Assembly: GCF_964194025.1 (NCBI RefSeq)
Contig: NC_134478.1
Span: forward strand, 15,314,001 to 15,378,000
Source of the DNA: Convolutriloba macropyga
Taxonomy: Eukaryota
DNA: 64,000 bases
Direction of reading: 5' to 3'
Below, piece by piece: positions 32,221 through 47,583 of this stretch. Each line of letters starts with the position of its first letter. The first letter of the stretch is position 1. The notes below the pieces were generated by a model. The model was not told the DNA's origin and did not search any database. It was given only the letters and a program-made list of their open reading frames with translations. The translations under genes were made by a program, and so were the position numbers.

Positions 32221-35110
32221 AACAGTTAGAGGTGACATCAAAAAACTGTTGGATGCGTTCAAAAACCTACATCCAAACCCTCAAAATGTATTAGAAACAA
32301 CGCAAGACAAAAAGGGCTAGAAATTTCTGGACATGTCAAATAACGTACAACCAGAGGCTACAGTTTTTTGCACATTGTATCAAAAACCATCAGAAACAGG
32401 AACAAATCATAATTAGCGTAGCAACTCTTCATTATAAAACAAAGGACAATACAGGAAAAAGTAATCTCCCTGTTTCGAGGCACTAGCAATTGGGGAGCGT
32501 TCCATGAAGCATTGACAAAAGATGAAAACAATTCGGAACATATTCAATATCCTAGGCATTGGGTAGGGATAATTGTCAGGGATACAATTAGTACGAATGA
32601 AAGTAAAAAGAAAAAGATATAACGCTGGCGTAGCCGTAAAACAACACAAAAATACTGGAAAAGACCAATTTGTATTACAGTACAGATTTAACATTTGTAA
32701 TGAATAAGTAAAGAAGCTAAACAGAATTTATCCTGTGGAGACAATTTTCACCAATCGGAATTTTAAGAGCTGTTTACCTAGCCTTATGTCAAGCTTTGAT
32801 AAAGTTCTCAAATCCCACGTGCTTTTTCAACTGACTTGTAATAGATGCAATTTCTTCTATGTAGGGCAGACAAGCGGACATATTACCACAAAGTCTGCAG
32901 AGCATGCCAAAGCGGACTCACTGAAATCATGCAGTTGAGTGCAACGGTGGTAAAGTAGCTTTCATTTGGAAGCTATTAGACCAGTGCGGTAACCAATCTA
33001 AGTTAGTGACACTAGAGGCGCTTTATATAAGAACAATGAAACCAGTATCAAAAACCATCAGATACTGGGACAATTCTGAATTACCATAGTTTTGCAACTC
33101 TTCATCATAAAAAAAGCACAATAAAGGGAACAAAACTACCCCTGTTTCGAAGCACTAGCAATTGGGGAGCGTTCCATGAATTACTGACAAAAGATGAAAA
33201 CGTTTCGGAACAGATTCAATATCCTAGGCATTGGGTAGGGATAATTGTCAAGGATACAATTAATACGAATGAAAGTAAGAAAAAGGAAAATAACGCTGGC
33301 GTAGCCGTAAAACAACAGAAAAAGCTGCGAAACACCAATTGGTATTACAGTACAGAGGCAACATTTCTAATGAATAAGTAAATAAGCCGAACAATATTTA
33401 TCCTGTGGAGACAATTTTACCATTCGGAAAATTAAGAGCTGTTTATCTAGCCTTATGTCAAGCTCTGATATAGTTCTCAAATCCCACGTGGTTTTTCAAC
33501 TGACTTGTAATGGATGCAAATCCTTCTATGTAGGGCAGACATGCCAACATATTACCACAAAGGTTGCAGAGCATGCCAAGGCGGACTCACTGAATTCATG
33601 CAGTTGAGTGCAACGGTGGTAAAACAGCTTTCCAGTGGAAGGTATTAGACCAGTGCGGTAACCAATCTAAGTTAGTGACACTAGAGGCGCTTTATATAAG
33701 AAAAATGAAACTGGTATCAAAAACCATCAGATACTGGGACAATTCTGGATTACCGGAGCTTTACAATCCTTCATTATAAAGAAAGCACAATACAGGGAAC
33801 AAAACTACCCCTGTTTCGAGGCACTAGCAATTGCGGAGCGTTCCAAGAAGCATTGACAAAAGATGAAAACATTTCGGAACATATTTAATATCCTAGGCAT
33901 TGGGTAGGGATAATTGTCAAGGATACAATTAGTACGAATGAAAGTAAGAAGAAAAAGAAACTAACGCTGGCGTAGCCGTAAAACAACACAAAAACACTGA
34001 GAAACACCAATTTGTATTACAGTACAGAGTTAACATTTCTAATGAATAAGTAAAGAAGCTGAACAAAAATTATCCTGTGGAGACAATTTTACCACTCGGA
34101 AACTTAAGGACTGTTTACCTAGCCTTATGTCAAACTCTGATAAACTTCTCAAATCCCACGTGGTTTTTCAACTGACTTGTAATAGAAGCAAATCCTTCTA
34201 TGTAGGGCAGACATGTAGACATATTACCACAAAGGTTGCAGAGCATGCCAAGGCGAACTCACTGAATTCATGCAGTTGAGTGCAACGGTGGTAAAACAGC
34301 TTTCCAGTGGAAGATAATAGGCCAGTGCAGCAACCAATCTAAGTTAGTGACACTAGAGGCGCTTTATATAAGAAAACTGAAACCGGTATCAAAAACCATC
34401 AGATACTGGGACAAATCTGAATTACCGTAGCTTTGCAACCCTTCATTAAAAAAAGCACAATACAGGGAACAAAACTACCCCTGTTTCGAGGCACTAGCAA
34501 TTGCGGAGCGTTCTATGAAGCATTGACAACAGATGAAAACATTTCCGAACATATTCAATATCCTAGGCATTGGGTAGGGATAATTGTCAAGAATACAATT
34601 AGTACGAATGAAAGTAAGAAGAAAAAGGAAATAACGCTGGCGTAGCCGTAAAACAAGACAAAAATACTGAAAAACACCAATCTGTATTACAGTACAGAGT
34701 TAACATTTCTAATGAATAAGTAAAGAAGCTGAACAAAATTTATCCTGTGGAGACAATTTTACCACTCGGAAACTTAAGAGCTGTTTATCTAGCCTTATGT
34801 CAAGCTCTGATAAAGTTCTCAAATCCCACTTGGTGTTTCAACTGACTTGTAATGGATGCAAATCCTTCTATGTAGGGCAGACATGCCAACATATTACCAC
34901 AAAGGTTGCAGAGCATGCCAAGGCGGACTAACTGAATTCATGCAGTTGAGTGCAACGGTGGTAAAACAGCTTTCCAGTGGAAGATATTAGACAAGTGCAG
35001 CAACCAATCTAAGTTAGTGACACTAGAGGAGCTTTATATAAGAACACTGAAACCGGCCGTCAACAAGCGCGACCAATCCCAAACACCAGAATTGACACTG
35101 AAAACTTAGT
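32221..35110 (+). mobile_element. Tandem array of four ~670-bp Penelope-like 3' fragments (RT thumb + GIY-YIG), pseudogenised
   Basis: Units begin caaaaaccatcagatactgggac (YQKPSDTGT) at ~32380, 33049, 33718 and 34390. Each contains KSHVVFQLTCNGCKSFYVGQT..HITTKVAEH, WK.LDQC and LEALYIR. The last unit ends ...PELTLKT*. Confidence 0.85.
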
Positions 35111-35259
35111 TTGGGGATGAAATTCGAACTTGAAAGAAAAACACGTTACAAAACGAAAAATTCAACATTTCAGTGAACAAAACAAAATAGGTTTAAAGTA
35201 TTTTTTGTATGCTTTTTTTAAAAAAAAAACATGTCGATATTCATCTGCGACATCAAATC

Positions 35260-36149: not shown

Positions 36150-37880
36150 AGAATAAAAAAGTTTTCAGATTTTTCCTACAAATAAGCTTATCTGGTATTA
36201 GCTTCAATTCAAATGGCAGTCTGTTCCGTTCATGCGGAATGGCATGTATGAAAAAAATTTTGTAAGTGATCACTTTTAGTGACCCAAATTTGAAGGTTGT
36301 ATATATACTGGAATCCTGTAACTTTATCATTGCGAGGCACAAGAGAGCTAAGATAACATGGAACATGATGAATCAGGCGATGGCCAAAAAACAAAATTTT
36401 GAACAACACACGTTTTCGCACAGGTAAACAATGTAGCCGCTTGATGAATCTTGTAGTTGTTGTTCCGGTTGACAGTTGAAATATCAGCCTGCATGCACAA
36501 TTCATTATCCGTTGTGTTCTCCATGAAGTACAGCAGGTAATCCATAGCAAAGTGAAATGCAGTAAACAAGCCGCGAAATAATCATTACGCTTATCAAATC
36601 TATTAGGACATCGCTGTCAACTGTGTCTCTGATAGAATAGATCATCCGTAGCATATACTAGCAGGCAGAAGTAACTGAGCTGATTTGCCTTGAAAATAAA
36701 ACTTTGTCATCTAGAATCAAGCAAAAGAATTCCACACGATTGGAACATTTGGAATCCATAGGGTGTTTTTAGATCGGCAATGAAAACATTATTTTGCACT
36801 ACTTTCATAAATTCTGTTTTAGTGATATTCAACTTCTGTTTGTGCCACTAAACCGTTTCTCTAAGCTGCTAATAATCAAATCAAACTTCTCCTGAGTCAC
36901 CGTTTCCTCATAGACAAAAAAAATAACGGTATCGTCCCCAAAGAAATGATAGTTTATTTGCAGCTGCTTAAATTTGAGATCTAATGGCAGCAAGTAAATG
37001 GAGAAAGTAGGAGGCCTGAAACCAAACCCTGACTTACCCGTTTTTATTTCCCGTTCCGAACACAACACATCTTTTATTAAAACACTGTGAGATCGACCAC
37101 TCAGATAGCTTTTTAAAAAACAGACAGCAAAACGTCGGAACCCAAGGCTGACCTCAAGTATTGATAGAAATATTTCTGGATCCAGTGTAACAAAAGCTGC
37201 CGATAGAACGAGTCCAATGTAAAAAGTGCTCTTTCTTAGCATTAATTTAAGTAACATGTCGTTGGTGACTTTTAGTAGCGCGCTTTCTGTTGAAAAAAAT
37301 TCTATAGGCACTTTGAAAAGCACAGAACAAGGCCTTGCTCTCGAGGTAATCGGTAAGTTGTACAAGAGCTGATATTTCTAAGAACTTTGATGTATAACTG
37401 AGTTTTGATATTGGTCGATAGTTTGCAAAATCCTCAGGATCAAGATGAACGCCTTACAAGTATTACAGGATGAGGTTTAACAATCGCTTGTTTAATAGAT
37501 TGGGGAAAACTCCCTTTTCCAAAAAAAATCGATGAGGTTCAATACTACAGAAGTTAGTTCATTAGGAATATATTTTTCAATCCTCGTCCGAATCTTATCC
37601 AGCGCTGATGTGCTAATCGTTGAATCAGTAAATAGCTTCTTCAAATGGTTCAAGTATAACTGAGTGAAGGCGAAAACGTTTTATTTGTCAACGGGAGGAT
37701 CACTGGACACTCAACTGTCTGAAATGATGCAATAATATTCCCAATTCTTGAAATAAAAAATTTATTAAATTCTGTAGCAAGAATTTCCTTATCTTCACAT
37801 TTTGGTAGTGTCTGCTCCTCTTTGACAAGTTGCCAAGTAGGGCTTTCAATAACTTTCGACGTGTACATTTCTTTCCCGTA
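36150..37880 (-). mobile_element. L2/CR1-group LINE reverse transcriptase fragment (decayed)
   Basis: Remnants LATEFNKFFISRIGNI, YRPISKLSYTSKVL, STESALLKVTNDML..LVLSAAFVTLD, HFFGDDTVI, and the L2-type C-terminal LHCLPVRKRVLFKIL...PCYLSSL. Confidence 0.8.
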
Positions 37881-37899
37881 CAAGACAACTTTCAGCGGA

Positions 37900-38990
37900 C
37901 AAAATTTACACAAAAACAAATATGAAAATTTTGCATTAGAAATCTTAGAGGAAGAAACAATTAGTTTGTGTGGACAGCAGGTGAAACCAAACGGAGTTGC
38001 AGTTGTTTTTTATTCCGAGGAAAGTTCAGAACTGAAAGCTGGTAATTTAAAATAACCATGGAAATGTTTCTTGCATGCGTGGTTGACACCTTAAATTTCG
38101 AACTTCTCAAAGAGAGAGAGAGAGAGAGAAATTTTCTAATGGAAATTAGAACGCCCCAATGCGAGATTCAAGGACTAAAAAATCAAACTATGATTGAAAT
38201 ATCAAAAAACATTGTTAGTCCATCAGTAACGCTCTTCGGGGAAAGAACTCACGTCTAAAGAGCAGGATCTGTGTTATATGTTCATAAACGTGCAAAGATG
38301 GTAGCAACAATAACTAAACTTCAGAATTTTTCTTCTATTAGATATATGGACCCTATTACAAAAATTTTGTATCATAATTATACAATCGCTGCATGCAACC
38401 CGCTGTACCCAAATGTTGTCAAATTAGAAGAGGGCAGTTTTCAACAATATGGAGAAACGCTGAAGAAATTCAATCTTGGGATATATCAGTGGTCGATGAA
38501 TAGTAACTGCATCAATACCTCAATGGATCACAGCCTTTTCTTCTTATTAGACGTAACATAGAGCCAAATTTCTCGAACAAATCGCCATAATAGTAAAGGA
38601 ACTGTCAGTCGGGAAGCATTCCGAGATTCAGATGGAAAATACAGTCATGAAATTTTTATTCAAGGGAACGATCAGTTCCAACAACAACTTTTTCTAACGA
38701 ATGAAATGATAATTTTTCGGAATTTAAGATCCGAAAGCTTATACATTTGGTTAAAATCGAAGGACATTGCTGTGTCAGTCTTAACAGTCTACCTAATTTT
38801 TCAATTTGTGAAAATTTTTCCTAAATTGTTCATATATTTAGGGTTAGTTATTAATGGAGCGTCTGGGCGACAAATATTGCGAAATTCTGACCCCATAACG
38901 AGAACACGTATGTATAATCAATTGCTCAAATTAATAAATGAACGCCGAGAACAAAAGAAAATGATTGAAGAAAAAGAATCCTTAAGAGAG
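37900..38990 (+). pseudogene. Viral/env-like glycoprotein remnant (class III fusogen-like, as in chuvirus G and env of some invertebrate LTR elements)
   Basis: Broken frames give NFALEILEEETISLCG, RAGSVLYVHK, RYMDPITKILYHNYTIAACNPLYPNVVKL and LGIY, then a C-terminal hydrophobic segment IAVSVLTVYLIFQFVKIFPKLFIYLGLVING and a basic tail. Motif order matches my recollection of chuviral-type glycoproteins. Confidence 0.5.
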
Positions 38991-39021
38991 TCAGTTGTTT
39001 TTAAAAAAAGAAAAATAAATT

Positions 39022-39387
39022 GTCTTGAGTTCAAGACTAAAAAAGGAAGGAAGGCAACGTCTCGAGTTCGAGACCAAAAAAAGAAAAAAGAAGAGTAGGC
39101 AACGTCTCGAGTTCGAGACCAAAAAAGTTGTCTTGAGTTGTAGACGAAAAATAAGAAAAAAAAGAAGAATAGCCAACGTCTCGAGTTCGAGAACAAAAAA
39201 ATTGTCTTGAGTTCGAGACCAAAAACAAAACGGGAACGTCTCAAGTTCGAGACCAATAAAAATTGTCTTGAGTTCTAGACGAAAAAAAAAGAAAAAAAAG
39301 AAGAATAGCCAACGTCTCGAGTTCGAGAACAAAAAAATTTGTCTTGAGTTCGAGACCAAAAAAATGGGAACGTCTCGAGTTTGAGAC
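39022..39387. repeat. Array of 11 hairpin palindromes GTCTYG-AGTT-CRAGAC with A-rich spacers
   Basis: Copies start at 39022, 39059, 39104, 39130, 39178, 39204, 39238, 39265, 39314, 39341 and 39372. Confidence 0.9.
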
Positions 39388-39496
39388 CAAAACAGTTCAA
39401 GATTGAAAAAATTGAGAAACTTTAGAAGTAAAAGGTGTTTTTTTATCCAAAATAGCGGGTAACGAGATTCCACAGATTGGTGAATATGTATACTAC

Positions 39497-40100
39497 ATGC
39501 AAGAATTGCGGAAATTTATTTTCGAGATTTCCCCGGGAGTTTACCGAGTGGAATCTTGTCTGTCGCGGACTCGGAAAGTATCTACGCTAGAACATCTGGC
39601 ACCAGCCAATATTTGGTCGCGTGCTCTGCAGACTAAAGTGGAACTGCAAAACAAGTGCTCACAGTTAGAGAAGTGGAAGAGTGATGACTCTTCACTTCAA
39701 AAAGACCTCGTCGAGCTTCGACAGGAACTGGATAACTATTACAAGACCAAAGAGGCAACAAAAGAAGTTTTGGGTAAATGGAGTGTCGAGAGTGAGGCGT
39801 TACGAGATAACTTAGGGGCAGCAGCAGCAGCCGAATAGGAGCTATCCATTGAGGTATTGAAGCCAGAGTTGGCCGATTTGAAAGTCAAATTTGCTAAGAA
39901 GTGAGAAGCCATCGAAAATATGGAGAAAATGAATGACCAATTGAGGTCAGAACTTGAGCAGCTGGAACACTACAATCAGTATTTGGCCAACGAATGCCGA
40001 AAAAAAATTCTCTCTTTTATCGACAAAAGAGTACCCTTAGGAACGAAAAAACCAAAACAAAGGCCATGGAGAAATGTTTATTCGAGATTGGGAACAAAAA
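39497..40100 (+). pseudogene. Disrupted coiled-coil protein ORF
   Basis: Heptad-like E/K/L-rich segments (ORFs 39497-39838 and 39920-40108) separated by in-frame stops. Confidence 0.4.
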
Positions 40101-40104
40101 CATT

Positions 40105-40364
40105 ATGAACCGGCCTGCAATGCTATACGAGATTTTGTTGGTAAAAAGTTCAGCTTCAAAAGATCAGATCAAGAAAAACACTACCACAAAACGAGCCTGT
40201 TGACGCACCCTGATGCTGGTGGAGACGAAGAATTCTGCAAGACCATCAACCGGGCATATCAAATTCTGACAAATGATGCGGCACGGGAAGCGTACATATT
40301 TGGACTTGACGAGGCCGAAAAAGATGAAGCTACAAACTTTTTGTATAGTAAGACGTTCACATAA
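40105..40364 (+). pseudogene. DnaJ J-domain ORF, frameshifted
   Basis: MNRPAMLYEILLVKSSASKDQIKK, a frameshift at ~40178, then HYHKTSLLTHPDAGGDEEFCKTINRAYQILTNDAAREAY. This is a canonical J-domain with HPD at 40206-40214. Confidence 0.8.
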
Positions 40365-40426
40365 CAAGATCTTTGAATGAAAAAATATTGTTTAATTTTG
40401 AGTGAGTGGTGCATTCTATTCTTGTT

Positions 40427-40460
40427 AAGAGGGAGGAAGTGTGAGTGTTACACGTATATG
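40427..40460 (+). other. Polypurine tract followed by TG (candidate PPT and start of a 3' LTR)
   Basis: aagagggaggaag (40427-40439) is followed directly by TGTGAGTGTTAC. Confidence 0.4.
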
Positions 40461-40489
40461 AAAAAAGTTTTAAGGTTAAAGATTTAATG

Positions 40490-43400
40490 TAAAAGAAACA
40501 GAATTGTCAAATTAAAATTTCTTCCGATATTTAAAACAAACGTTTTCGAACTTTACGTTCATTGTCAGGTTAAAACTGTTTTTACAAATTGTTAAAAGAT
40601 AAATAAATATGTATTTAAATTTGTCTTAGACCAAACTTAAAACAATTCTAGGAACTATTATAAAAATTCAATCAAAAATTTTTCCATATGCACAAAATTT
40701 AGCCTATATACAACTCATATTTACATCCATTATCAATTGATTTAAAATCATTCCAATTCCGGATTTTTTGATTTTGGCCATGTTCTTAATTTTTAGGGTT
40801 ATTCCGAATTTGCTCTAAACTTAAGTATCCCTCTTGTGGAGGTTTTGCAAATTTCGTTGTGTCATGCACAAAATGTTTTTTGCCCTATGTATCCTCATCT
40901 AGCCAAAATCATAATTCGAACTAATATTTTAACGTGAGTTCCCGCCCCCTATGTTCATCGCGTGTGTTTAGTGCCGGGTTCAGCTTGCTGATGTATATAG
41001 CTTCGATAATCATTAGTTTTTCTTTCTACCGTCCGGCAGGTGCCCAAAATTTTCCATTCAATGTCATTCGTGGCGCCACGACATTCAACATGATGTTGAC
41101 CCACCTGTGAATCTTTTTTTTGATGTTGTGTTATCATTGTGGTAACATGGCGGCTTGTTTGTTCAACATAGATGGATCCGCATCTATTATATTTAATCTC
41201 ATATACCACGTGGTATTATTTCAGGTCTCTATCGAAAGATGACTTCAGGGTGGGGAGGCAAGATCTTTATTTCCGCGCCGTAAAAACCACTTGTAATTCG
41301 CATAGTTTCTTCAATTTGCTTGCAAAATTTTGAGTATGGTTGCCTCTGTATGGTAGAAAATTAGTTGGCGTATTGTAAGATCTAGACGTTCTTTTATGAT
41401 GCTCTTTTGGTGTTGGTCTCATTTGGTCTTCACCGCGACTTATTATCTTTTCTAGATTCTGGTTCACTATTTTTGAAGAGCAATCTTCTGGATAATGATT
41501 TTTGGTCCAGCAAGTTTTGTTCTTTTCAAGTGCCTGATCGAAGGCCAACCAATTAGAGGTTGCATTAAAATCCTTATGAACCGTCCTTTGAATCACAATT
41601 GTCTTATGCTGAAGCGGTGCGCAGCTGCGAAAATTCAGTATCACTCCAGTGTCAGTTGGTTTTTGATACCAATGACAGGTGATATTACTTTTACTGCCCA
41701 CTTTCGCGTTAATGTCAAGAAAAGCCAAATTCACTTCCATGTTGACTTTTTCTAAGGAAAATTGCAGGTTGTTGTGTAAAGAATTTGCAAATATTAAATA
41801 CTCGTCCGGGTGACAACGAATCATGCAGATAATAGATAATATCATCCCCATACCTTTCAAACAATTTCATTCCCTCATAGTTCCCCACTATCTGTTGGTT
41901 GTTGCAATAAGTACAAATCCAAACAACATCCTGCATGTTGGCGTATTCCTCATTCGATATCTTTTGGCATTTTGCATGAAACCAGTTTTTGTATGACTCA
42001 CATTCTTTTCCTCTTCCTCGGAAAGACAATCTCCGTTTACAGTCTTTGCAATTGCCGTTTTGGTCGGATCTGGAAATATTTTCGTTGAGTTCTGGTTTTT
42101 GCAGTGATGCCTCAAACGATTTCATCCACACGTTTGCTAGTATTACAGCCAGTGATGCACCCATAGCCAGACCATTCGATTATACATACCAAGTTCCTTT
42201 ACAATTGAATTGAACATTCGTCACAGCAAATTTTAGCAAAGTTTTCTTGGCGGATCTTGGGATATCTGGAGCTAGTTGCTTGAATAGAGTTCTCTTAGAG
42301 CAATTTCTATAGCCTCGCCAACCGGAACGTTGGTGTACAAACTTTTTACGTCAAGAGATACTATCTGCTCGTCATCTTCAAGAGTGAGAGACTCTAAGGC
42401 CTTTCTAGCATCTTGCGTGTTGTATTCAATATTTGCGCCGGGTAGTTTCTGGAAAAATAGTGTCAGAAATCTGTTTAGATTTTTGTAGCTGCTACCAGGT
42501 ATCGAAAGAACAGGTCGGGGAGGTGTATCGTTTTTAGGTAACTTTGCCAGGCCTTAAAGCCTCGCTGGTTGTGAACCTGTTGACCTTAGTCTTTGATCAA
42601 TTTTGTCACCAATCTTCCCTTGCTTCATTAATTGTTGCAGGCTGTTATTGATCTGTTTTTCATTTTTGATCACAATATCATCTTTTGCTTCATTGATTTG
42701 TTGAAACTGATCCTTTTCCGTGTACGTTGCCTTCTTCATCACACAGAAACCGCAGCCTTTGTCAAATGGTACCGCCAGCAAATCATTGGTTTTTAGGTAA
42801 TCATGCACTTTTTTGACCCCTCTATTCATTCGGGTTTCGCGTACTTTTTTTGCATACCATTTTGCTGACGCCTCAATTTCACAAAGCCTCTCACCCCCAG
42901 CGTTATTCTCGCGTAGCTCACGTACAAGCTTGTTTACGTCTCCAAGGAAGTGCACCTCATTAAACTTGTCACTCACCGGGTGTTTAGGTCCCAACGATAA
43001 GATCTCAAGTACAAAATTTGGAAGTTCACGGCCATCCATTATCACAACATTACTATGGGAGCCATTCCACAGTGGTCTATCCTGTCTCTCTGACAGTTTA
43101 TCAAGTTTTCCATTAAGTCTGTTTTGAACCATTGCGGAGTGATTCCTCATTTCACGCTTAACGCTGCCAACAACGGATGGCATCAGTTCTGGTCTCACAT
43201 TCTCCCTAAAATTACTCCTATCCGTCTCAAGTTTTTCCTTGAACACTTTACGGCATTTCTCCGCACGGTTTATTTCCTGTTTCAGGAGTTTTAATTGAAA
43301 ACTGTGCTCCGCTTGTTCAGAAAAAATTTCATTTTAAGGAGCGCGAAACCTCAAAAAATCCGGAATTATATCATTGTTAAGGCATTGTTTTAAAAACTCA

Positions 43401-44452
43401 ATTCGGTAATTGCAGCTGGTGACCTTATTTAGGGTTTTCAAGTAACAAGATAAAGTTTGTAACAGTTTGATTTTTTCAAAATATACCTGAGCCACGTCTT
43501 TGTTAGCAGCAACCACATTCATCAAAGAAACTCAAGGACAGGGGGCAATGAAACCTGATTGTTCAGGAGCTCCTCCTCAGACTGTGTCTATTTCACCTTC
43601 CTTGCCTTGGCTCTCGATTTCCTCTGCCTTTTTCCCCAGTTCTTGCCTTTTCCTTACTTGAGCAGCCCTCTTAAATTGTACTGATGGCGTATTACTGTCT
43701 CCATGGTCCTAATTTCTAGCCCGGCCTTCTGATGCAGCTGGCAATACTTTCCTGGCTGCGTCTTCCTCTTTCTCTTCGAAATCAGGTGCTTGGTTATGCT
43801 TAGCATCAGTACCACAGACCTCCGCAGCTCCAGAAAAATATAATCTGTGCCTATAAGTTGACAGTAAACAATAGCACTGAAGCGGTTTTTGTTCGTTCTA
43901 AGAAACGTTGTCAACTCCGGCACGCTGCAGGGCTGGTAGTTGTTTGACTTGTGACGTAAGATTGTGTTATTATCCAGTCTTGCCACACTACCAAGTCTTT
44001 GCTGTTGGTCAGATGACCCTTCTGAAGGAAATTCCTTGCGTTTTTGAACCAGTTTTTGGAATTTCTATTGAAGGAGAGACAGGGAACCGATGTAACTTTC
44101 CCTAAAAACTGTTTTTCGCTTGAATATGGGAGACTATTTACAGCGTGGTGAAGCGAAATTGCAGCCAAATAATGAACCATCTCTGTAAATCTATAAAATT
44201 CATACTCGCTAAAACACTAAAATACTGAAAACTTCTCAAAGTATTTTGCATTTAGCCCTTCTTTAGGCCTTGTTTTCAAAATATTTGACAAATTAAATGA
44301 TGTAAAAGAAACCGATCTGTCAAATTAAAATTACTTCCGATATTTAAAACAAACGTTAAAAGATAAAATAAATTTGTATTTAGATTTTTCTGAGACCACA
44401 CTTAAAACAATACTAGGAACTATTCTAAAAAATCAATCGAAAGTTTTTCCAT
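40490..44452 (-). mobile_element. Near-full-length Penelope-like retroelement (RT with PHD insertion + GIY-YIG), decayed, flanked by direct pseudo-LTR-like repeats
   Basis: N-terminal RIEFLKQCLNNDIIPDFLRFR (43525 ORF). RT motifs ARL*GLAK...RPVLSIPGS, SLDVKSLYTNVP (~42325-42360), GLAMGASLAVILAN, RYGDDII (YGDD 41841-41852), LAFLDI and WYQKPTDTG. GIY-YIG VYEIKYNRCGSIYVEQTSRH...IEAIYI..LNPALN, stop at 40921. Direct repeats at ~40490-40688 and ~44304-44452. Confidence 0.92.
40535..40571 (-). ncRNA. Minimal type-I hammerhead ribozyme motif (core G8 to A variant) in the Penelope terminal repeat
   Basis: Reverse complement AAC-CTGACAAT-GAAC-GTAAA-GTTC-GAAA-ACGT-TT-GTT gives stem I AAC/GTT, stem II GAAC/GTTC and a palindromic ACGT mini stem III. 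It sits ~350 nt after the ORF stop. Confidence 0.55.
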
Positions 44453-45078
44453 AATATTTTTGACGTGAAAAGTCGGTTAAAGATTTAGTTTAAAATTTGA
44501 TTTATTGCCTGATTTATGGCTGACACAAGGTTGATAGGTGTCAGAAAAGAAAATAGACCTGTGATTAGACAAAGCTAGGGCTTCGATCGAAATCAACGAA
44601 ACTGACATATCTTTGTTGACTTAGCTAATTTACCACGATGATGGAACCGATATTGGTTACCGACCAAAGCGAGGAATAAATTCATTGAACACCAAACTTC
44701 CATCAGAGCTAACCACTCTATTAAATCTAGTCAAATTAAACCAACTTTTCTTCACCATAATCTACTTGACAATTTAACTTATAACTTTGCATTTTAACCA
44801 AGTACCACGCTCAATTAGCCACGGACATAGAGTATTGCACACGGGCGGCTACTATACTACGTATTTTAATTTCCAAAATTCGTGATATTTTTAACTTTTT
44901 GGGCGTGACTTGGCCAACGGATAGCTACTATGATGGGGCCTTATTTTATCGGACAACTAATTTCGGGAGGGGGTTGGTTATATCATTGAAAAAACACATA
45001 ATAATTTTTCTACGAAATATTTTAAAGTAATTGTAATGAAAGATTAACGAATGTTTCAGATAGAAAGCTTGAGCCGTT

Positions 45079-47583
45079 ATGAACGGGTCCGAAAGCGGCG
45101 TTACTATGACTTCTGCAGAAATAGCGCATCGGGAAAAATGCGAAGATTTGTGTAAAACTGTTATGGAGTCGGTGATGGTCGTTAAACGCAGTGTACCGCC
45201 CAGCGATCAATACGAGTACTACGGGGCTTTTCCTAAATACCAGCACGTCATTCGTAAATTGAATGATTCAATATATAAGACCATGAACACTGTTTTCTCG
45301 CACGAAAAGCTTTCGACGTCATTTCATCAAGATAATCAGTCAGAAACTGACTTCTCGGATAAGTTTGAAATGATGGTGGAAGCGAATGATGTGATATTAG
45401 AGAAAGTTGGTAATCTCATGGACGAAGCGATGGGATTGCGTTCCCAGCCAGCAATTAAAGTGAGCAGTAATGCGCCAGCAGTTGTAGCTTCTTGGAACAA
45501 AAATCAACTGCAATCATCTTTCAAGTCTACTAAATCATTTTCCTGTCTAAATTGGTTGCCTAAACCTCAGAATGATTTCGACGAGAAACCAGATAATTCA
45601 ACTCTGCCGTTTACGACAATGTTGGTTGATAAACCGAACAATGTTAGAGCGTTATCCAGGTCATATTCACTATTTGTCAAAGGAGAATACAAAGAGGCAA
45701 AAGACCAAACTGAAAATCAGCCTCTATTGCAGCGATCGTACTCTTTCTCAAAGCAATTCGTTGAGGAAATCACTGAGCATCACTATGAAGCAGAGCTGAC
45801 TTCTTTTGTATTACCTGATCATTTTCTCGAACCTGTAATGTGCATACGCCCCGTAGAGGCGACTATCGAAAACCTGCATTTTATTGACACCGTGCCTGGA
45901 CTTAATGCCATGATAGACGTTTTGTCGAAAGAGAAAGAAATTGCCGTTGATTGTGAAGCTCACAACCACAGATCATTTTTAGGCTTTGTCTGTTTGATTC
46001 AAATTTCCACCCGGAAACATGATTATGTTGTTGATACCATTGCTCTTAGATCGCATATTCAAAAATTAAATTCTGTCTTCACGAATCCTGAAATTCTCAA
46101 GGTCATGCATGGATGTGATTCGGATGTTCTATGGTTCCAAAGAGATTTCGGTTTGTACCTCGTCAATGTATTTGATACTGGACAAGCTGCGAGGGCTTTG
46201 AATTATCCTACTTTTGCATTGAGTTATCTTCTAAAGAGGTACGTTAATTTTGACGCTCAGAAAGAGTATCAAATGGCAGATTGGCGGCAGCGACCGTTAC
46301 CCAATGAAATGCTTGATTACGCTCGAATGGATACACATGCCTTGCTTTACATAGCGGACAATCTGCGCAACGCTCTTTACGAGCTACAGAATAACGCTCT
46401 GTTTGAAGTCTTCAACAAAAGCAGACTTTTGTGTCTCAAGAAGTATTCAAAACCAGAATATCACGCCAACTCCTATCAGAAAGTTCTGAGAAATGTGAGA
46501 AAGCGGTTGACAAACCAGCAAGAATTTGTCATCGCCAAACTATATGATTGGAGAGAAGAAACTGCTCGAAGATTGGACGAGAGTCCGCATTACGTGCTGC
46601 CCAATCATATGATGATTCGAATTGGGGAGGTACTACCCCGCGAAGCACAGGGTATTCTGGCATGTTGCAACCCAGTGCCGCCTCTGGTACGAGAATACCT
46701 CAGCGTTTTGCACAAAATAATAATGGATGCCAAATTGAAACACCTGACCACTGACAATGAGACAGGGTTGAAGTTCCAAAGTGTTTCCAAAAATGTCTCT
46801 ATGACTGAAAAGTCGTTTCCTCATGATATTAGCCAAGATAGTGCAGTTGAATCTTTTAATGATCTGGATGCAAAATGCGACGACAATTTATGTGCAGAAA
46901 GGCCACAAGTTCAGCTTTTGACCCAATCATTATACAAAAAAGAGAAAGTTGAGAAATCGATGCAGATTCTGTCTAGTTTGGAGCATCCTTTGTCAAAATA
47001 CTTGGCCGATTTGAACATCGAGCCAAAATTTTTGACGACAAATGAACGTTCCGCCAATTCTCTGTCTCTAAACGCGAAAAGGGGAGAAAAGGCAAAGTTT
47101 CCCCATAGATGGAGATTGAAAGCCCAAATTATTGAGAATCCCTTGCCCAATAATGAAGTTCAGAGTATTGAAGAAACAGCTGCTACTCATGATGTTGTTC
47201 AACAAAAACCGGCTGAAATACCGATAGTTTTTGACGCCCAAGACGCGTCACAGAGTATTTTGAAGGACAAATCTGCGCTCAAAAAAGAAAAGAAGAGGAA
47301 AAAACGGGATGTGATCGAGACGACCAGTTATCAAGACGTTCCTCTTAAGAAAAAGAAACGATCAAAAGTCGCATCCATCTCGGAAATGCAGTCGCATGAT
47401 AAGGCAGAGCTTGGCGAACAAGAAAACGGATTCGAAGATGTTGAAGACGAAGAAATGGAACATCCAACATTGGCTCCTTTGAAGAAACCAAAGAAATTAA
47501 AGACCAAGGCTAAATTATCGCATTCGTTGATGCCAAGAATCAGGGCGTTCTCGAACAAGTCATTCTCGTTCAAACCCAAATAA
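45079..47583 (+). CDS. EXOSC10: Exosome component 10 (Rrp6 / PM-Scl100) 3'-5' exoribonuclease, single exon, 834 aa
   Basis: PMC2NT-like N-terminus (VEANDVILEKVG), KPQ..F...PDNS..PF, DEDDy exonuclease (IAVDCEAHNHRSFLGFVCLIQISTR, HGCDSDVLWFQRDFGLY, DTGQA, KEYQMADWRQRPLP, YARMDTH), HRDC domain (LYDWREETARRLDESPHYVLPNHMM) and a basic tail. Confidence 0.97.
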   Translation: MNGSESGVTMTSAEIAHREKCEDLCKTVMESVMVVKRSVPPSDQYEYYGAFPKYQHVIRKLNDSIYKTMNTVFSHEKLSTSFHQDNQSETDFSDKFEMMVEANDVILEKVGNLMDEAMGLRSQPAIKVSSNAPAVVASWNKNQLQSSFKSTKSFSCLNWLPKPQNDFDEKPDNSTLPFTTMLVDKPNNVRALSRSYSLFVKGEYKEAKDQTENQPLLQRSYSFSKQFVEEITEHHYEAELTSFVLPDHFLEPVMCIRPVEATIENLHFIDTVPGLNAMIDVLSKEKEIAVDCEAHNHRSFLGFVCLIQISTRKHDYVVDTIALRSHIQKLNSVFTNPEILKVMHGCDSDVLWFQRDFGLYLVNVFDTGQAARALNYPTFALSYLLKRYVNFDAQKEYQMADWRQRPLPNEMLDYARMDTHALLYIADNLRNALYELQNNALFEVFNKSRLLCLKKYSKPEYHANSYQKVLRNVRKRLTNQQEFVIAKLYDWREETARRLDESPHYVLPNHMMIRIGEVLPREAQGILACCNPVPPLVREYLSVLHKIIMDAKLKHLTTDNETGLKFQSVSKNVSMTEKSFPHDISQDSAVESFNDLDAKCDDNLCAERPQVQLLTQSLYKKEKVEKSMQILSSLEHPLSKYLADLNIEPKFLTTNERSANSLSLNAKRGEKAKFPHRWRLKAQIIENPLPNNEVQSIEETAATHDVVQQKPAEIPIVFDAQDASQSILKDKSALKKEKKRKKRDVIETTSYQDVPLKKKKRSKVASISEMQSHDKAELGEQENGFEDVEDEEMEHPTLAPLKKPKKLKTKAKLSHSLMPRIRAFSNKSFSFKPK

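Follow-up and report, generated by a model that had tools for sequence, protein, structure and literature searches.

A predicted J-domain protein encoded behind env in Ty3/gypsy retroelements of Convolutriloba macropyga

The window analyzed here, a stretch of 64,000 nucleotides from Convolutriloba macropyga, holds at positions 37880 to 40486 and 44475 to 44856 the decayed 3' part of a high-copy LTR retroelement, a Ty3/gypsy (Metaviridae) element by its sequence. Between env and the polypurine tract (PPT), this element carries a fourth open reading frame, ORF4, which is under strong purifying selection and ends in a predicted J-domain. A preliminary description had read this cassette as the 3' half of an LTR retroelement that has both an envelope and an accessory J-protein, and that reading held up: the envelope gene is of class III type, its linkage to the J-domain ORF recurs across copies, and LTRs and gag-pol flank the cassette.

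The window copy and the complete element

Three-frame translation revealed decayed plus-strand frames across 37880 to 40340, with an HPD-bearing J-domain last. As previously described, all parts lie on this strand in the order env, hairpin array, coiled coil, J-domain, purine tract, and TG. The 3' part of env (37880 to 39002, plus strand), identified by tblastn to the 677-residue ORF of another copy and by PF24664 and Foldseek matches, corresponds to codons ~292 to 677 of an ORF that other copies keep open over 677 codons; it is 5' truncated and spread over two frames with internal stops. Everything 5' of codon ~292 is lost, and a minus-strand LINE-like fragment, which had no Pfam match and is labeled by the appearance of its motifs, adjoins there. 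Downstream on the plus strand are an array of 11 near-palindromic 16-nt units in A-rich spacers (39023 to 39388), a T-rich tract plus AG that is a putative splice acceptor by its sequence and by the same context in families A to E described below (39440 to 39458), and the decayed small beta-rich domain and long coiled coil of ORF4 (39443 to 40115, with the coiled-coil portion spanning 39443 to 40063). The C-terminal J-domain of ORF4 (40116 to 40322, plus strand; HPD codons at 40206 to 40214) matched Pfam DnaJ (E = 2.5e-7) and Sis1 and DNAJA1 in the PDB, and it is split by a frameshift. Thus, the coiled coil and the J-domain, formerly taken as separate ORFs, belong to one frameshifted gene that is a single frame in open copies.

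The PPT (40427 to 40439, plus strand) is followed by TG at 40440, where the first piece of the 3' LTR begins (40440 to 40486, plus strand; matching the LTR start of six other copies). This LTR is not cut off by a Penelope insertion, as had been thought, but split by it. Its remainder, ending in CTATA, continues at 44475 to 44856 (plus strand; 74 to 90% identity to LTRs of other copies by blastn), behind a minus-strand Penelope-like insert of ~4 kb (40487 to 44474) that is foreign to the element and has a 13-bp duplication on its two sides, at 40474 and 44475. The Penelope label is based on ORF appearance and repeated ends, with profile support from RVT_1 at E = 7.5e-5 only. At 32300 to 35150 of the window, a Penelope-like 3' region is repeated in tandem, as decayed copies spaced about 670 bp. 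About 220 bp past the end of the 3' LTR begins a single 836-residue ORF (45073 to 47583, plus strand) for an EXOSC10/Rrp6-like exosome nuclease with PMC2NT, exo, and HRDC domains.

Other copies were sought in genome DNA searches with the env part (567 first-look candidates, 40 scored) and the distal part (613 first-look candidates, 40 scored) as queries. Env was followed by ORF4-region DNA in 19/19 other loci examined, one of which stops short and one of which has an inverted distal piece, and in 18 of the 19 the similarity to the window ended at 40449 to 40467. Paired LTRs with gag-pol flank the cassette in other copies, in which the order is LTR-gag-pol-env-palindrome array-ORF4-PPT-LTR and the element length is ~9.9 kb. 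Direct repeats of ~432 bp, about 9.4 to 10 kb apart, were paired in six of the nine places mapped in full, with 1 to 8 mismatches per pair in all six copies. The LTR runs from TGTGAG to CTATA, ending TG...TA rather than TG...CA, and four of five evaluable copies of family A, the family of the window copy, had matching 4-bp flanks. The primer binding site (PBS), which begins one base past the LTR, can pair with 13 nt of the host tRNA-Ser(GCT). One family A copy (G000:C11:11187884) has an 18-nt PBS with 17/18 matches to the tRNA-Ser 3' end, which is consistent with copying of the primer during reverse transcription; the other copies examined match over 13 nt only. The exact tRNA pattern from one variant PBS matched only itself. 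A large tandem cluster of tRNA-Ser(GCT)-like genes at 2.70 to 2.80 Mb of contig C10 (G000:C10) holds most of 107 pattern matches. Internal segments (env-ORF4, or pol or env pieces) were duplicated head-to-tail in many element copies.

The complete element encodes gag (zf-CCHC), pol, the 677-codon env, and ORF4 of ~308 codons. In other copies (the window copy is without pol), pol has the order PR-RT-RH-IN-p58C with gypsy-type RH and IN profiles. We assign the element to Ty3/gypsy because of this gag-pol domain set, the paired LTRs, and the PBS. BEL/Pao and a Maverick-like virus had both been put forward, and neither survived the Pfam pol profile and the direct LTRs. Pao peptidase and DUF1758-1759 gave no Pfam matches at E = 0.01, and there is a single zf-CCHC stretch; likewise, direct LTRs and RT are present instead of the pPolB and terminal inverted repeats of Maverick/Polinton elements.

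The product of env matched PF24664 (Monjiviricetes_fusion) over the cut-off in families A (E = 5e-7), B (E = 5e-20), and E (E = 2e-14). An AlphaFold model built from 33 sequences was weak (pLDDT 57). With this model, 40 of the 40 PDB matches listed by Foldseek were class III fusogens, including thogotovirus GP, GP64, and herpesvirus gB (best E = 1.6e-7; TM-scores of 0.09 to 0.26), and the top BFVD matches were mostly xinmo-, chu-, and rhabdo-like glycoproteins (best E = 7e-13). The profile and Foldseek results agree with the original reading of an Env-like fusogen. Because the TM-scores are low, we place Env among the class III (gB/chuvirus-type) fusogens by family assignment, short of a full structural match. 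The N-terminus has a hydrophobic peak at residues 28 to 47; the C-terminal segment is hydrophobic by eye and falls below the hydropathy cut of 1.6.

ORF4, its J-domain, and five related families

In open copies, ORF4 is one frame encoding a stretch of predicted beta strands (~50 residues), a ~170-residue helix, and the J-domain. The Pfam DnaJ profile was over the cut-off in families A (E = 1e-16), E (E = 8e-14), and D (E = 2e-10), and the predicted model contains the J-domain helices, with HPD between helices II and III. By these sequence features, the ORF4 product of these families is a predicted J-domain protein of the class C type. HPD was intact in 28 of 35 family A copies and in the family D and E ORF4s inspected. 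The closest J-domains in the PDB are those of cellular Sis1/DNAJA/B proteins (E of ~1e-9 to 1e-10). The parallel with polyomavirus T antigen drawn earlier does not extend to the source of the domain: T antigen was found at E = 0.14 or was absent, versus ~1e-9 for cellular J-domains. A phylogeny, which the preliminary description had called for, grouped the J-domains of families A, D, and E at 98/98, apart from 17 host J-domains (on long branches, with bootstrap not fully settled). No close host parent was found among these 17 (at most 37% identity), a sample that may miss intron-split or low-scoring host genes.

The N-terminal domain of ORF4 had no convincing Pfam match, with single members at E = 0.01 at best, and a search of PDB sequences likewise found none; we read it, from a motif and a low-confidence model (pLDDT ~50), as possibly Tudor/SH3-like. 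A fold search with ORF4 returned generic coiled coils only and hardly probed the low-confidence N-terminal part. In protein database searches, all 162 matches belonged to families A, D, and E, copies of which crowded the results, and no phage match was found; there is no sign yet of ORF4 relatives in other taxa.

Genome searches with distant env and ORF4 proteins identified four further families, B to E, and all five families have a fourth sense ORF between env and the PPT. Families D and E are ~75% identical to A in RT and 27 to 30% in env, and the ORF4s of A, D, and E have a common layout of beta domain, coiled coil, and HPD J-domain at 26 to 33% identity. Gag-pol-env and young LTR pairs (99.8 to 100% identity in B, 93 to 99% in C) are also found in families B and C (RT ~60%), whose ORF4 has a coiled coil and a basic, serine-rich tail and no J-domain. 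The RT tree of the five local families split A+D+E from B+C at 100/100; it has no outgroup and so leaves gain versus loss of the J-domain unpolarized. Homology of the B/C ORF4 N-terminus to that of A/D/E was not supported (hhalign probability of 0.3%, blastp E of 0.017 or worse), and the ORF4s of the two groups appear to have only position and rough layout in common. Family B is very young, with at least ~37 near-identical copies and a 684-codon env; its ORF4 product of 330 residues matched no Pfam family. The family C ORF4 product, of ~407 residues, has a poly-Asn start, and its gene overlaps the end of env; compared with B, the env of C is 62% identical, and the ORF4s are barely alignable.

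Selection was evaluated as net divergence between two family A subfamilies, with the first 10 of 25 young copies compared to 10 copies of the window's subfamily. Net dN/dS was 0.09 for ORF4 (95% CI, 0.06 to 0.15), 0.05 for its beta domain, 0.11 for the env part, and 0.04 (0.01 to 0.09) for the J region, where dS was near saturation (0.97; CI, 0.5 to 3.1). In family E, the net dN/dS of ORF4 was 0.19 (0.06 to 0.46; 4 versus 3 copies). Values within groups were 0.5 to 1.3, reflecting decay after insertion. ORF4 is thus under strong purifying selection. Net dS was 0.02 to 0.04 over env codons 290 to 550, 0.32 at the end of env, and 0.69 in ORF4, and the net difference between the subfamilies rose from 0.00 to 0.03 before about env codon 560 to 0.06 to 0.20 after it. 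Since dS is low in env and high in the env end and ORF4, the two subfamilies have a common env ectodomain and different 3' modules, with the switch near codon 560. ORF4, the array, and the LTR move together as one exchanged 3' module.

A J-domain ORF carried as a captured host fragment, or a chance pile-up of parts, is a very improbable explanation. LTR elements do pick up host fragments, and the window copy is broken; however, env and ORF4 are linked in every one of the 19 other loci, which defeats the pile-up that the preliminary description had allowed for. Moreover, net dN/dS was 0.04 to 0.12 across the ORF4 parts, three families retain the J-domain ORF, with about 30% identity between them, and the host J-domains sampled include no close parent.

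Expression and possible function of ORF4

The palindrome array, found only in family A among the five families examined, has an RNA fold z-score of −6.7. Two-sided, palindrome-keeping change was seen in 10 units, versus 81 units of the commonest stem type. A heat-shock element was rejected as an identity for the unit, as the spacing does not fit the consensus. Motifs of the CTCGAGTT type, resembling the array unit, occur in the family A 5' leader ~100 to 450 nt past the PBS. The 5' leaders of families A, D, and E each contain a putative GTGAGTA donor; the family B donor is weaker, and the pattern searched found none in the leader of family C. A T-rich tract plus AG directly precedes the ORF4 ATG in families B to E and the ORF4 frame in family A. 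This acceptor pattern, tuned after the sites were seen, was present at 4/4 sites versus 53/731 background ATGs. The donor and the T-rich tracts suggest that ORF4 may be made from a spliced subgenomic RNA. Against this model, family A has its first in-frame ORF4 ATG within the beta domain and no ATG in the part of the leader that precedes the donor.

A C-terminal HPD J-domain, a long coiled coil, and a small N-terminal domain make up the layout of a targeting co-chaperone, which binds a client, triggers ATP hydrolysis by Hsp70, and remodels the client. We give an even chance to the reading that ORF4 serves as an adaptor whose HPD J-domain brings in host Hsp70 to dismantle a bound target. What that target is forms the least certain part of the reading, with a host silencing complex the most likely. 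The GTGAGT donor in the leader would be spliced to the AG just before ORF4, the N-terminal domain would bind the target, and the J-domain would stimulate ATP hydrolysis by Hsp70, so that the client, possibly a host silencing complex restraining the element, would be remodeled. T antigen stimulates Hsc70 by means of its J-domain and requires this domain to act on pRB (PMC11720896), and J-proteins have roles in the silencing of TEs and in the loading of Argonaute (PMC8616336; PMC11194074). We favor a host silencing complex as the target because J-proteins serve host silencing and T antigen turns its J-domain on a host complex; it is favored over the element's own particle because the J-less families B and C propagate with the same core genes and because ORF4 is swapped as a module.

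Recruitment of Hsp70 to the element's own particle, for Gag assembly, uncoating, or Env handling, would resemble the way auxilin directs Hsc70 to clathrin coats. ORF4 lies directly behind env, and the env anchor and tail diverge together with ORF4 from about codon 560, fitting a coupled tail-ORF4 pair. On the other hand, that breakpoint may simply reflect 3' template switching, no hydrophobic segment was found in ORF4, and families B and C, which share this gag-pol-env, are young and abundant and lack a J-domain. We therefore regard a role on the particle as rather unlikely.

ORF4 might also be a helper at the level of transcription, binding element DNA such as the array, or an Hsp70 decoy, and raise LTR expression with no specific disassembly target. 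The movement of ORF4, array, and LTR as one module would fit such a role, as would the palindrome-preserving change in the array units and the basic, serine-rich tails of the B and C ORF4s. Nonetheless, families D and E have a J-bearing ORF4 separated from env by only ~15 to 30 nt, with no array there, and no DNA-binding domain was detected in ORF4; we consider this possibility improbable.

Relation to known elements and implications

Accounts of endogenous retroviruses in invertebrates usually present them as simple elements with gag, pol, and env. Extending the adaptor reading, we suggest, tentatively and at somewhat less than an even chance, that a clade of enveloped gypsy elements in an invertebrate consists of "complex retroviruses" with a dedicated post-env accessory slot, in which one branch's old capture of a cellular J-domain gave a T-antigen-like counter-defense disassemblase. 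Its reader domain would grip a host silencing complex, and its J-domain would have Hsp70 pull the complex apart.

"Ancient errantiviruses" are Ty3/gypsy elements with an HSV/gB-type env (Chary & Hayashi, eLife 2026, PMC13524379). The present element resembles them in gag-pol-env order, gB-type class III env, paired LTRs, tRNA-Ser PBS, and many near-identical copies, and it differs in having a fourth sense ORF with a J-domain between env and the PPT. Neither DnaJ nor acoel is mentioned in the main text or seven supplements of that paper (supplement cells to 400 characters), and the same holds for J-domain in its main text and ORF4 in its supplements (cells to 400 characters). Anakin, a mosquito BEL/Pao element (Dezordi 2020, PMC7642597), likewise has a chuvirus-like class III glycoprotein inside LTRs; unlike Anakin, the present element is Ty3/gypsy by its Pfam pol profile and has ORF4 in addition. 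The additional ORF3s of bdelloid Juno, Vesta, and TelKA are of F-type env, GDSL, DEDDy, coiled-coil, or TM types (Rodriguez 2017, PMC5408684). These elements also hold captured genes between pol and the 3' LTR, which in bdelloids are non-env, family specific, and typically spliced (PMC5408684), whereas here the extra gene is present in addition to env; the accessible text of that paper has no mention of DnaJ. As in polyomavirus T antigen (PMC11720896), an HPD J-domain of the element's own is joined to what is here a predicted targeting part, and families D and E have a short HPDKGG-type loop. In contrast to T antigen, the J-domain is C-terminal, closest in sequence to cellular Sis1/DNAJA/B, and located in a retroelement. 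The literature listings searched, which take in few subscription papers or bioRxiv supplements, showed no paper describing an LTR element with a J-domain ORF. Thus, a gB-type env in gypsy (PMC13524379) and extra ORFs in LTR elements (PMC5408684) were known, and a J-domain fourth ORF behind env, not seen in the sources covered, is apparently new.

Altogether, all five related families have retained a fourth gene, which in three of them still encodes a strongly constrained J-domain with its HPD intact. They provide a directly testable case of a predicted retroelement-encoded Hsp70 co-chaperone, for which the J-less sister families are natural controls. Should a host silencing complex prove to be the target, the finding would name a counter-defense route for animal LTR elements and tie it to the known need for J-proteins and Hsp70 in small-RNA and chromatin silencing.
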